A stretch of 64,000 bases of DNA from Podospora anserina (lineage: Eukaryota): assembly GCA_017654855.1 (NCBI GenBank), contig CM030333.1, forward strand, positions 2,914,001-2,978,000, given 5' to 3'. Within the stretch, counting starts at the first letter, position 1. Every line of letters starts with the position of its first letter. Both the position numbers and the translations under genes were made by a program. Below the pieces are notes generated by a model. That model was not told the origin of the DNA. It was given only the letters and a program-made list of their open reading frames with translations, and searched no databases. This document shows, piece after piece, positions 4,111-9,376 of this stretch.

Positions 4111-5066
4111 TCACGCATCAAACCCAGCCTCCCTCCTCCTCTTCATAATCGGCCTCAGTTGATCCCCCGCCCACCCATCCTCATAGTCATCCTTGAGATC
4201 AAACGTCCCCTCAGGCTGAATAGCCAGTGCCCGTCCTGCATTTCCAAGTCAGCATAGTTCCCCTCAGATTTGAAAGCAAAACACATACCATGCACACCGC
4301 CATCAACCGCACAATAACTCGCAGCCTCCACACAAGCCTCCACGCTCACAAAATCCAACACCCTCGCCATATCAACCCCCCTAGCCGCCATCGCATTCTT
4401 AATCGGCGCAACAAGCGGCGTGTCCACAAACCACGGCGCCAGCAAATTGCACCTGACGCCGATATCCAGCGTCCGGGCGCGCGTGCTCCTGAACAAACCC
4501 CGGACGCCGAATTTGCTGGCGGGGTAGGTCGATGCCTTGGGACTGTCCATGTACGCACCGATTGAGGCGACCAGGATAAGTGACTTGTCCGGCTTTGCAC
4601 CTTCCGAACCACCAGTAGGAGGCAACAATCGGAGGTAATACAGCGCCAGCCAGGAGCTGTAATAAACCCCAATCAGATTCACCTCTATATTCCTAATGTT
4701 TGGCTTTGCAGGGTCGGTGTCGAGGCTGGGCTGGCCGGCGGCGAGGACATGGTCGACTTGGTTGCCTGGCATGAAGGCTGTGCCGGCGAAGGTGGCGACG
4801 ATGTCGAGCGCTTGGGTTGGGGAGGAGGTGATTGCTGTTTTGAAGGCTTGCACTTGCGAGTCCCAGTTTGTGACGTCGCACTGGACGTACTTGATGTTGT
4901 TAGGTAGGGAGTCAGGGGGGGTTTGGATGTCGGCGATTGTGACGTGGGCTCCGGCGGATGCCCAGGCGAGGGCGGTGGCGAGGCCGAGGCCGGAGGCGCC
5001 GCCGGTGATGAGGGCTGATTTACCGCGGAAGGTGGAGAGGTTGACGGTGGTGGAGATGGGGTCCAT
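4111..5066 (-). CDS. stcG: Short-chain dehydrogenase (5'-hydroxyaverantin dehydrogenase, adhA/aflH-like)
   Basis: TGGASGLG and YPASK SDR motifs. An intron at 4288-4236 gives the C-terminus [24 protein letters not shown]...GFDA, with the stop at 4113-4111. Confidence 0.88.
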
Positions 5067-5228
5067 TTCGACGGGAAAGGCTGGGGGCGTGCTGGTGGGT
5101 GGGATGATGGGGTTTGTTCGTATGAGGTTCGGTTGACTTCAAGTTATTCTTTTTGTAAGAACTAGCGGTGCCCTGATCATGCAATCTATGCAAACACGTG
5201 GGACGGCCTTCTTCTGGTTGGTAGAAGC

Positions 5229-5299
5229 TCGGGGCCCGGAGGAGGGTTGATGCAGGTTCGGAGGGACAAAACTAGAACTCTAGCAACCTCGAGTATCGG
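5229..5299. promoter_or_regulatory. Two TCGN5CGG AflR-like sites in the stcG/stcF divergent promoter
   Basis: TCGGGGCCCGG at 5229-5239 and TCGAGTATCGG at 5289-5299; these match only the relaxed consensus. Confidence 0.5.
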
Positions 5300-5353
5300 G
5301 CCCTCTACCATCTCTTGTTTGCCCCTCTCACTGTGAAAGGACAAAAGCCCTTC

Positions 5354-6966
5354 ATGATGGAGCTCGTCACACAGTACATCCTTGCTGTAAGTCACGCTTT
5401 GTGAAAGATGAAGAGCCAAACAGATACTGACCAACCCACGGCTCCTTCTCCTAATCCCCATGACGATAGGATTCCATCGCCTATACTTCCACCCACTCCG
5501 GAACCACCCAGGACCACGATTGTGGGCCGTCTCACGTCTCCCCTGGCTCTACAGCACAGTCAAAGGCACCATTATCCAGGACCTCAAAGCCTTCCATGAA
5601 CAATATGGCCCCGTAGTTCGAGTAGCACCCAACGAGCTATCATACACCACCCCCGCCGCAGCAAAGCCAATCTACCAGTCCAACCCGGAATTCCCAAAGG
5701 ACCCCATGCACCTCCCCCCCTTTCACAACGGAACACCAGGCATCCTCGCCGCGGACCACCAAAACCACCGGCGCTACCGCCGCCTCCTCTCGGGAGCCTT
5801 CTCCGACCGGGGAATGCGCGCCCAGCAAAACATGATCCAGCATCACGTCGACCTGCTAGTCTCACAACTCAAACAGGCGGCGTCACAAGACAACAACAAC
5901 AACAACTCGGTAGACATGTGCCAATGGTACAACTGGACAACATTTGACATCATCGGCGACCTCGCCTTTGGCGAATCCTTTGGCTGCCTCTCCAACGCGG
6001 CCACGCACGAGTGGATCGCGTCCATCCAGGGAAACGTCAAGGCCATCCCCGTCATCAACGCCATCCGCCGGCTGAGGCTGGACTGGATCATCCCTCTGAT
6101 CGCCCCCAGGAAACTCCTCGCCATGCGGGCTCGCAACGCAAAGTTCACCGAGGACAGGGTGGACGCCCGGAGAGGGCTCGGGACAACGACGCCACGGGGT
6201 GACTTGTGGGATGGTGTGATGGAGGGCATGTCTCGGGACGAGATGATCAGCAACGCCAGCGCCATTGTCCTTGCGGGGAGCGAGACCTCGGCTACGCTGC
6301 TGAGCGGGTGCACGTGGTTGCTGCTGCGGAACCCCGAGGTGCTGGGGAGACTGACGGAGCATGTACGGGGGTCGTTTGGGGATGAGTCGGAGATTGACCT
6401 GATTAGTGTGGGGAAGCTAGATTACATGCTCGCTGTCCTGGATGAGGCTTTGAGGTTGTACCCGCCTGTTCCTATGCAGAGTAACCGCGTGGTGACTGGC
6501 AAGGGGGGGGGTTCGATTGCGGGTGGATGGGTTCCTGAAGGGGTAAGTTTGTTCCTGTTCCCCAAAAGGAAACATGACAAAGCAACTGGTAGGCTAATTT
6601 GAAAGGACCTGAGACAAGACCTCAGTGGCACTCCAGCTCTACGCGGCATGTAGATCCAGCAGTAACTTCCACCGGCCGAATGAATTTCTCCCTGAGCGCT
6701 GGCTCGGGGGAAAGGACGGGGGTGCCTTTGCCGATGACCGGCGTGAGGTATCCCAGCCGTTCAGCATCGGTCCCCGCAACTGTATCGGCCGCCAGCTCGC
6801 CTACGCCGAGATGCGGCTCATCCTGGCCAAGATCTTGTGGCACTTTGACCTGAAGCTTGATTGCGCCAAGATGCAGGGCCGCGATTGGATGGGGGGCCAG
6901 GGGGTCTGGATCTTGTGGGATAAGCCACCGCTCTGGGTGACGGTACGTCCCAGGCCGCGTTCCTGA
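5354..6966 (+). CDS. stcF: Cytochrome P450 (averantin hydroxylase, avnA/aflG-like); intron-1 acceptor is anomalous
   Basis: PGP, AGSETS, EALR, PERW and FSIGPRNCIG motifs. Exon 1 is 5354-5386 followed by GTAAGT; intron 2 is 6543-6618. It lies between stcG and aflS. Confidence 0.9.
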
Positions 6967-7929
6967 GTTGCTTGGGCGTGCCGCGGAGGATTCAGTGTGT
7001 GAGTGGTAGTGCAGTAGTAATGTGATAGTGCCCACTCCCTCCCCCCACCTGAGCCCCTATTCAGATAGCAGAGGGTGAATTGTGAGGGCCTTGTAGGATC
7101 GATAAGCCCATGCGTGTCAGTGCAAGGGATTCCCTGCGAGGGATTCCCTTGTCGGGGCTTGTACCGTAATGACTACCCTTTGCAATATCACGTCAATCCC
7201 CATCGACCGGTTAAGGCTTTGAACGTAGCAGTCGTGCTGCAGAGTTGTTGTCGTACATACATGAGGTATCTACATAGTACGTGGTCCAGCTGGCTGGTTT
7301 GATGGTCCCACAAGATTACCTCGGCATGAGATCTAGGTATGTGATTGCTGTCCCTTCCTGTTCCAAGATAGGTATGCAGGTGAGAGGCGTTCGCAAAGTT
7401 GAGCGGCCAATGGGATGAGTGAGCCACCATCTACAACCCACCGGTTAGGCGTCCCCGGTGAGGGCCCTATCACCCAATCGACCCATCTTCATATCCTTCA
7501 CCGCTTTTTTGGTGTAAGTCGTCTGCTGCTGGTAGGAGGAGATACGCCGTGCTGTGCCGTGATGCTGCAGCCGGAAGGATTTAAGGATGGCAAAGGATAA
7601 AGTCTTGTTGTATGTGGCCCACTTACTCAGCTGAGCGTGGTACGACAGGCGCTATCGTTTCTTCAAACGATAGCGATCCGCAGTTCGTTCAATTGGAAAA
7701 TGATGTGATGATCGGCTTGGAGTTGACGTTACAGTTATGTCATGGTGTGATACCCCGCACTCTAGACCTGCTGTCAGCGAGCACAGTCTTGCCCGCTGGC
7801 ATGAGGATCAGACGATACAGTAGGTTTCCAGTATGCCTCTAATGCTGCGAAGAGTTCTGATTCACCATCACCATTTGATACAATGCTATCAAAGATATAA
7901 TGCATCAATATAGATTGGCCACTGGAGAA

Positions 7930-9376
7930 TCAGCGCCTAAGATCATCATAGGACTGATATCGAATCTCCAGCGCCACAAACGGGCTGCTTGGGCATCGGA
8001 TCTCATCCGTGACCACAAACCCTCCCGAGCTATCGCGGATACCGTTTAGGAGGTCCACCACCTCTACCTTTTCCGCGTGGCGGCCATTGGAGAGCTGCAG
8101 CAGGGAAATATCCCGCAGCCGTGCCGTCGCCTCAACTTCAACGTCCACCGTACCTGGAGGCGGGAGAACCAGGGCCGTCAGAATGAGTCGGGACCCTGGA
8201 TTGGCCCGCAGCACATCGACGTGTGCGGTAAGCTCTGCAGTGGCGTGGATGGCGATAGTGCTCCACTTGAGGGATGGGGTTGGAGACGGGAGGTGTAGAA
8301 TGTAGATGGCGGCGTTCCGTACCGGTTGCGAGGTCCCTAGAGACCGTTTCTGAAGGGTGACCTTGGCATTGTGATCCGAGTACCCGATTCCGGGGACCGG
8401 TGGGAGGGCGGCAGGGAGGTGGGGGAGACGGGGTAAATCAGAAGAGGAGGGTGTGGTGGTCGAAGGAGCTTCATACATTTGTACGATGAACTGGAGTGTC
8501 GGAAACAAAGCCACCAGGCCAGCCGCTGTAGCGAACGAGTGAGCGCCAACCTGCGATTGGTGGTCAGAGTTATTGTAGTTTCGCTAGTGGGAGATCTCGT
8601 GTGACCAGCTAGGTGGGTGTAGGAGTGTAGCAGGGGTAAGGTAACTTACGTCCACCACCGTGGCATTTCCCAAGCTGCCCCAGTCCACCCGCATCAGCAC
8701 ATCGCGGGTGCCGGCTTGGTCACCGTTTGTAACGGATTCGAGATAAGTGCCAAACTGGCGCTGGAGTCTGGGTTGTAGCTCAAAGACACTGGCTATAGGA
8801 ACGCCGGTATCAAAGGCAACTGTGTAGGCAGACTGATCGGTGCGGTCTGAAGCTCCGTACTGCCTGGTGGCAGTTGCCATCTTCAACGAGGCTGGGGCAG
8901 CGGTGCCCGAAAGAAACATGACGGCGTCGAGAAGTGCCGGCTCGGTCACAAACTGCGCCGATAAAGGGCTGTGGGCGACATGACCCTGCTGGGGCTCCTG
9001 AAGGAATCCCGAAGTGATCATCAGGCGGCTGACTCGGAATAGCTGACCCTCTGGCACGCCACAGATATCGGCCACGTCCTTGAAAGGAACAGCATCGTCG
9101 AGCGGGATACACGCCAACACCTGGAATTCGCACAGCCATTGGAGACAGGCAACCAGTTGAGTCTGCCAACAAGGAGAAGTCTCAGCTTTCCGAAATACCT
9201 AGGCTTCCAAGGCTCGTAACAGGAACCTGGGGAAACACGGGCATGGTAAAAAGTCGGCACGGGTGGGACTAGAGAGACAAGCGGGTAGAAAAAAGCCGAA
9301 ACCGGGGAGATAGGGAAAGAACGATACGCACGTGAAGGGCTAGGCCCCGAAGGAAATCGCTAGGTTGTCGCTGCAT
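7930..9376 (-). CDS. aflS: AflS (AflJ) transcriptional co-activator; start codon uncertain
   Basis: Exons 9376-9332, 9162-8650 and 8550-7930 give QLVACLQWLCEFQVLACIP...GFLQEPQQGHVAHSPLSAQFV...ATVVDVGA...ARLRDISLLQLSN. It is divergent from aflR. Confidence 0.85.

Follow-up and report, generated by a model that had tools for sequence, protein, structure and literature searches.

A probable GT-GG first intron in the putative averantin hydroxylase gene of Podospora anserina

We analysed a stretch of 64,000 nucleotides (nt) from Podospora anserina (assembly GCA_017654855.1, contig CM030333.1, positions 2,914,001 to 2,978,000 of the forward strand; hereafter the window), in which a cytochrome P450 gene on the + strand is identified by its sequence as the putative Podospora orthologue of stcF/avnA/aflG, the averantin hydroxylase gene of the sterigmatocystin pathway, and corresponds to Pa_2_7340. 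The first intron of this gene (5387..5441, +; 55 nt, phase 0) starts with GT and ends with GG, and we consider it probable that it is a genuine GT-GG intron, spliced inefficiently or conditionally. The letters at both intron ends, the homology of the intron with that of related genes, an exact splice junction in one RNA run and retention of the intron in three further runs are all observed directly.

Results

The donor of intron 1, GTAAGT at 5387-5392, agrees with the U2-type consensus GTRNGT, and the branch sequence CTGAC at 5427-5431, within ACTGAC at 5426-5431, agrees with CTRAC and has its branch A at 5430, at a distance of 11 nt from the end of the intron. The acceptor reads CGG (5439-5441), the terminal dinucleotide at 5440-5441 being GG in place of the AG of U2-type introns, and the intron is accordingly filed as a non-canonical GT-GG variant and not as a GT-AG intron. 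A preliminary description of this DNA had recorded an exon 1 encoding MMELVTQYILA, the donor at 5387, the branch sequence at 5427 and a CGG with G at 5440, and each of these observations is exact. U12-type introns have the donor RTATCCTT together with a matching branch consensus, neither of which fits GTAAGT and ACTGAC, and this class was ruled out. Between 7 nt upstream and 38 nt downstream of the branch A, no AG occurs. The only upstream AG (5422..5423, +) lies 7 nt before the branch A. Its use would produce an in-frame intron of 37 nt which, as had been pointed out, ends before the branch point and which contains no branch consensus. The first AG after the branch (5468..5469, +) lies 39 nt from the branch A and would give an 83-nt intron; the frameshift foreseen for it is borne out, with a stop after 59 codons.

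Comparison with related genes indicates that the homologous acceptor is an AG elsewhere. Among metagenome contigs, a scan found 12 related loci, of which 10 (7 distinct sequences) were examined; L010, whose match begins at residue 49 at a contig end and lacks the N-terminus, and L012, a distant P450 of 32% identity, were left out of the intron comparison. In all ten, the same codon position carries an intron of phase 0, 54-62 nt in length and with AG at its end, the distance from the A of the CTRAC branch to the intron end being 10-16 nt (11 nt in the window), and because phase, position, length and branch distance recur in all ten, the arrangement in the window is not a product of chance. The intron of L003 ends ACCCACAG and that of the window ACCCACGG, the last 8 letters differing at 5440 alone, and in an alignment of six rows GG at the acceptor is confined to the window, the other five rows having AG. 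Exon 1 of the related loci comprises 8-16 codons, or 20 in L007 and L011 should translation begin at an in-frame ATG further upstream; in L002 and L003 it has 11 codons and starts MMEIT, as compared with MMELV in the window. Since AG stands at the homologous acceptor in all ten loci, the G at acceptor position -2 (5440..5440, +), which is A in every relative examined, is a derived A-to-G change, and a single transition at this position in the Podospora lineage would be the simplest history. Furthermore, the Chaetomium olivicolor orthologue has 10 residues before LLLLIP, the length predicted by a junction of 5386 with 5442.

As a separate observation on these loci, the contig pairs L001/L005, L007/L011 and L008/L009, which belong to different records, are identical over the displayed ~290 nt (the N-terminal region, from 200 nt ahead of the match to 90 nt inside it). 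In each of these six loci there is an averantin-hydroxylase-like gene whose first intron is the conserved one, and the same fungi appear to recur across samples.

Splicing was examined in four public runs (X16, X17, X19 and X20), all aligned as contigs, which show the presence of a form and not ratios or absence. In X17, a contig of 2505 nt (depth 292.7) joins 5386 to 5442 exactly, skipping the 55 letters of the GT..GG intron, with no letters shared across the junction (both=0) and flanks of 255 letters or more on either side; no contig of this run has intron 1 unspliced. The suggestion that this might be a rare GT-GG intron is thereby supported. No joint to 5424 or 5470 occurs in the contigs of the four runs. 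The joint of intron 2 (6541/6542 to 6618/6619) was found in four of four, so all four runs contain spliced RNA. Other origins of the X17 contig were also considered. The lack of shared letters argues against a template switch by reverse transcriptase, which is ruled out by this together with the coincidence of the joint with a conserved intron, and an intronless DNA copy is ruled out by the occurrence of intron words in all DNA-type runs. A-to-I RNA editing, which is found in related fungi, was rejected as acting in the wrong direction to make AG from GG.

The G at 5440 is found in independent data. Twenty public runs contain the stretch, and 15 of them, from five studies, contain all 171 sampled words (share 1.00); 7 of these 15, from two of the five studies, are possibly the source of the window and so do not count as independent. 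Contigs of X16, X19 and X20, which come from three further studies, cross 5387-5441 unspliced with 0 differing letters. A sequencing or assembly error at 5440, the first part of which had been raised in the preliminary description, is rejected as having a practically negligible chance, given the same letter in contigs of three RNA runs and every sampled word in 15 further runs; nothing speaks in its favour.

We then compared the proteins predicted from the possible N-termini, taking the best 19-residue Kyte-Doolittle window as the anchor score. Splicing of the GT-GG intron joins both halves of the hydrophobic N-terminus and gives a score of 2.04; exon 2 from 5442 encodes LLLLIPMTIGFHRLY..., and the reading frame resumes as LLLLIPMTIGFHRLYFHPL... 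directly after the CGG at 5439-5441. It is therefore correct, as had been stated, that splicing after 5441 produces an intron of normal length (55 nt) and a clean P450 anchor. The 37-nt alternative inserts ILTNPR into the anchor and lowers the score to 1.66, and a start at ATG 5460 leaves no anchor (-0.43), so that an N-terminal anchor is found in the GT-GG spliced form only (2.04 vs -0.43 from ATG 5460). In all full-length homologues inspected, the YRL/HPL hinge is preceded by a hydrophobic N-terminal stretch. The spliced mRNA would be the source of active enzyme. When the intron is retained, ATG 5354/5357 opens an open reading frame (ORF) of 16 codons, and an out-of-frame ORF of 63 codons (5408..5599, +), particular to intron-retaining mRNA and starting at an ATG with A at -3, opens within intron 1 and overlaps ATG 5460. 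On account of these two ORFs, little P450 would be expected from the retained form.

Proposed mechanism

We propose that intron 1 is a U2-type spliceosomal intron (5387-5441) whose acceptor would have changed from AG to GG through an A-to-G transition at -2, while a perfect donor and a consensus branch 11 nt before the end would have been kept, along with the final G of the intron, the base that is paired with its first G during the second catalytic step; the distance from branch to end is likewise typical for this intron in relatives. As these signals are kept and no AG competes near the branch A, the spliceosome would still ligate at the ancestral junction of 5386 with 5442. There, the 11 codons of exon 1 would run on in frame into exon 2, and the product would be a P450 with a normal N-terminal membrane anchor. 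The A at acceptor position -2 pairs with the branch adenosine, and its loss should weaken docking without abolishing it, which may be the reason that GG is tolerated. A weakened acceptor could in turn make the second step inefficient or dependent on conditions, so that much RNA would keep the intron and be non-productive, with translation of the 16-codon ORF and then of the 63-codon ORF across ATG 5460. A GG that acts as a weakened acceptor but is still chosen by its position would thus explain both the precise junction and the frequent retention.

A number of points weigh against this interpretation. The junction of 5386 with 5442 was found in one of the four runs, and in the other three the dominant contig retains the intron, only unspliced forms being seen there (depth 196 in X19, 32 in X20 and 12 in X16); contigs, moreover, drop minor forms and give no ratios. 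None of the runs listed is on record as RNA, and the four are so classed by automatic guess, backed by the joints of intron 2. The letter at 5440 is unobserved in X17 since the intron is skipped there, and G would have to be assumed at this position in the spliced run. In addition, the pattern is specific to the intron and runs in opposite directions, X17 splicing intron 1 and mostly leaving the canonical intron 2 (unspliced depth 158 vs spliced 95), and X19 and X20, in which intron 2 is seen spliced only, doing the reverse; in X16 the depths for intron 2 are 6.7 unspliced vs 4.4 spliced. A difference in genotype would neatly explain the opposite patterns of X17 and of X19 and X20. Homology of the intron at the DNA level is drawn from metagenome loci, the sister species Podospora pseudocomata and Chaetomium being represented by their proteins. 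The curated Pa_2_7340 model enters the comparison through its coding sequence (CDS) span. Finally, the reported production of sterigmatocystin is not tied to a strain in which the letter at 5440 is verified.

Alternative explanations

Several of these points come together in a strain polymorphism, in which the strain of X17, and probably that of X18, would carry the ancestral A at 5440 and splice an ordinary GT-AG intron, and the G allele of the window would be unspliced and null or strongly hypomorphic. This would account for the near all-or-none, intron-specific behaviour, X17 having no unspliced intron 1 contig at a depth of 293 and X16, X19 and X20 having no spliced one. It is compatible with the unobserved letter in X17, and the word share of 0.94 in both X17 and X18, which belong to one study, fits the loss of every word that overlaps intron 1 (presumably so in X18). 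However, no A allele occurs among the 15 full-share runs (five studies), all of which hold every sampled word, and X17 has 0 other letters over ~2 kb. In the sister species, the automatic gene model takes an internal Met as its start, which would be expected if AG were absent there too, and in its excerpted text PMC7299030 reports sterigmatocystin from P. anserina laboratory strains. The prior chance of a polymorphism on exactly letter 5440 is also low, and taken together we regard this explanation as unlikely.

It has also been suggested that ATG 5460 could be used without an anchor, and the working enzyme might then be an anchorless P450 made from intron-retaining mRNA, with the GT-GG splice a minor by-product. 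The retained form is dominant in three of the four runs, and the deposited P. pseudocomata protein begins at that very Met. Set against this, such a protein lacks the hydrophobic segment (-0.43) that all full-length homologues inspected possess, and exon 1, which it would dispense with, is conserved in relatives. Within the unspliced mRNA, ATG 5460 is preceded by ATG 5354/5357 with its 16-codon ORF and by the well-placed out-of-frame ATG 5408, whose 63-codon ORF runs across it, so that a productive start there appears improbable. The productive route might instead be a canonical alternative, either the 37-nt GT-AG intron 5387-5423 or a 79-nt intron from a weak donor at 5391 to the AG at 5469, both of which keep the frame. 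To our knowledge, TopHat2 limits its discovery of new junctions to GT-AG, GC-AG and AT-AC, so that GT-GG junctions are not discovered. Junction calls from this program underlie a published table (PMC9801653) that lists for Pa_2_7340, without coordinates, intron retention and an alternative 3' splice site, and the latter event could be taken to favour a canonical alternative. The two listed events also lend support to the GT-GG interpretation, as does the curated CDS span mapping to 5354-6966. Neither junction is present in any of the four runs, though, and of 86 in-frame GT/GC..AG combinations that we enumerated none was seen as a joint in them. The 37-nt intron has no branch motif, its AG lying upstream of the only ACTGAC, and it inserts ILTNPR into the anchor; the 79-nt intron removes the LLLLIPMTIG half of the anchor; and the resulting N-terminal lengths are unlike that of the Chaetomium orthologue. 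We regard a canonical route as very improbable.

Turning back to the GT-GG intron itself, it is conceivable, if rather doubtful, that sterigmatocystin synthesis is gated post-transcriptionally by the GG acceptor, the intron being kept under most conditions, with non-productive mRNA as the result, and removed efficiently only in one specific physiological or developmental state. That state would then be represented by X17 and, going by word share, X18, with intron 1 fully spliced and the canonical intron 2 not. If this were so, the supply of the enzyme for the averantin step would be set by the fidelity of the second splicing step and not by transcription.

With regard to the pathway as a whole, the preliminary description had proposed a splice-disrupting mutation that could block synthesis at averantin. 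The disruptive part of this proposal finds support in the derived A-to-G change and in the retention of the intron in the dominant contig of three of the four runs. The block does not, as a precise in-frame product exists and sterigmatocystin has been reported: in the excerpted part of PMC7299030, the structure of sterigmatocystin was confirmed by nuclear magnetic resonance, and the wild type of P. anserina was compared with a mutant for the relative amounts of the compound. Since P. anserina is reported to make the compound, a block of the pathway is unlikely in laboratory strains.

Gene identity and layout

Exon 1 (5354..5386, +) has 11 codons, MMELVTQYILA, and supplies the first half of the membrane anchor; its second in-frame ATG, at 5357, has a better context than that at 5354 (A at -3, G at +4). 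Exon 2 (5442..6542, +; Pfam PF00067, E 3.1e-34) encodes the remaining half of the anchor and the HPLxxxPGP hinge, together with the bulk of the P450 domain, and contains the internal ATG 5460. It is followed by intron 2 (6543..6618, +), a canonical GT..AG intron of 76 nt, and by exon 3 (6619..6966, +; PF00067, E 4.2e-20), which encodes PERW and the haem-binding FSIGPRNCIG and ends in the stop codon 6964-6966. P450 enzymes are recognised by the haem-binding pattern FxxGxRxCxG, by ExxR and by AGxxT/S in the I helix, and the motifs of the family are all present here (AGSETS, EALR, PERW and FSIGPRNCIG). Judged by its domain and motifs, the gene appears intact apart from the acceptor of intron 1, and by orthology its product would convert averantin to 5'-hydroxyaverantin. 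In protein matches, exon 2 shares 99% identity with P. pseudocomata QC762_207340, which begins MTIGF, and, among the matches listed, 78% with the C. olivicolor protein and 71% with Dothistroma AvnA; Aspergillus StcF and AflG, again among the matches listed, show 60-64% identity to the Podospora P450. An AAC repeat at 5892-5906 encodes 5 Asn, where the P. pseudocomata protein has 7, and the two proteins differ otherwise in three residues.

The deposited P. pseudocomata protein lacks exon 1 and starts at the internal Met equivalent to ATG 5460. Its model was made with MAKER and had P. anserina proteins among its evidence, and still the internal Met was taken as the start, as would be expected if the sister species also lacked the AG.

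The transcript ends and untranslated region (UTR) sizes of Pa_2_7340 and Pa_2_7350 are tabulated in Table S1 of the supplement of PMC9801653. With UTR sizes taken as inclusive, we infer that an offset of 2873657, checked at 6966, 7930 and 9376, maps these coordinates to the window. The published CDS span of Pa_2_7340 then maps to 5354-6966, so the ATG of exon 1 is already the start in the curated model, and the CDS of Pa_2_7350 maps to 7930-9376 on the minus strand, where the window has a stop-bounded ORF ending at 7930 with an ATG at 9376-9374. One offset fits both genes, which shows the locus to be collinear with the reference of P. anserina. By the same mapping, the shorter published transcription start would place the 5' UTR at 5282..5353 (+), in which the list of ATGs has none, and a second published start would lie at 5188. 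The 3' contig of X17 stops at 7057 with a short loose end, close to one of the published transcript ends, which maps to 7061.

A short-chain dehydrogenase gene (4155..5066, -; PF00106, E 6e-24) occupies the stcE position as the divergent neighbour of the P450 gene. Contigs of X17, X19 and X16, which carry no strand, are continuous through the spacer between the two genes (5067-5353), and with published starts mapping to 5188 and 5282 the transcripts or UTRs of the divergent genes may overlap. The P450 gene thus adjoins the dehydrogenase and lies two genes away from the aflR orthologue Pa_2_7360, which is named PaAflR in the excerpt of a preprint; the sterigmatocystin cluster of P. anserina has also been described in review literature, as far as its excerpts go. 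The label stcF, under which the gene had been introduced, holds as a statement of orthology, supported by the protein matches and by collinearity of the locus with Pa_2_7340, and fails as a name, the gene being that of Podospora and not Aspergillus stcF itself. In the main texts of the literature searched, Pa_2_7340 is unmentioned, and it is absent also from a supplement of PMC9864250; PMC8939327 mentions neither stcF nor the identifier Pa_2_7340.

Discussion

In a tree of 27 rows, the Podospora P450 falls into a clade of 21 AvnA/AflG/StcF rows (support 98/98), apart from six more distant P450s. When midpoint-rooted, the tree groups it with the sequences of C. olivicolor and Achaetomium macrosporum (100/99) and outside a clade of 12 Aspergillus rows (100/100). 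In this tree of the P450 gene, Podospora is not nested in Aspergillus, and identity to Dothistroma AvnA (71%) exceeds that to the Aspergillus proteins (60-64%, among the matches listed). A transfer of the cluster from Aspergillus to Podospora has been published, according to excerpts of the review literature, and the position of the Podospora P450 outside the Aspergillus clade bears on that proposal.

Some elements of this picture are already known, namely GT-GG introns as a rare fungal class, an orthologue of a well-known enzyme, and exon 1 as part of the curated model. What is new is the ancestral AG of the same intron in relatives, the exact RNA junction, and the loss of the anchor in the automatic annotation of the sister species. 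The CDS span of the curated Pa_2_7340 model includes exon 1, whereas the automatic model of the sister species omits it. Gene finders restricted to canonical ends lose exon 1, the deposited P. pseudocomata protein is left without an anchor, and other members of the P. anserina species complex are probably misannotated in the same way.

The intron may be viewed as a natural single-letter experiment, in which a conserved intron has been deprived of its acceptor A and the old junction would still be ligated. It seems well suited to the study of how branch distance and the pairing of the last with the first intron G act in the choice of 3' splice sites in a filamentous fungus. A weak acceptor in an early gene of the pathway could also limit or time the output of a mycotoxin, in which case transcript counts would overstate the amount of enzyme made, and conditional splicing, if true, would raise the interest of the finding further.

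Finally, the gene and its intron can be set against known systems. Like Aspergillus stcF and aflG/avnA and Dothistroma AvnA, the Podospora gene encodes a P450 domain with its motifs and has a dehydrogenase as neighbour and an aflR orthologue nearby, but unlike the averantin hydroxylase genes compared it has a first intron with the acceptor GG. In Fusarium graminearum, GT-GG introns were confirmed by Sanger sequencing and are part of a 0.31% class of 'other' introns, according to the excerpt of PMC3577648, and in a manually curated annotation of Ganoderma lingzhi they number 38 (0.041%) and are the third commonest non-canonical type, as given in the excerpt of PMC11590231. The intron described here shares with both a normal GT donor, a GG acceptor and support from RNA. 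It differs from them in that its ancestral AG is visible in relatives, so that a single A-to-G step can be read, and in that it interrupts the membrane anchor of a mycotoxin enzyme and is retained as the dominant form in most runs. In Saccharomyces cerevisiae, non-YAG 'BG' 3' splice sites can be ligated, with UGG among the most efficient, their use being governed by pairing between the first and last bases of the intron, as set out in the excerpt of a study of Prp18p (PMC10711555). Both the yeast sites and the Podospora acceptor end in G without an A; however, the BG sites are minor alternatives, mostly unmasked in the absence of Prp18p, whereas in Podospora, against a wild-type background, a conserved intron would have GG as its sole productive acceptor.

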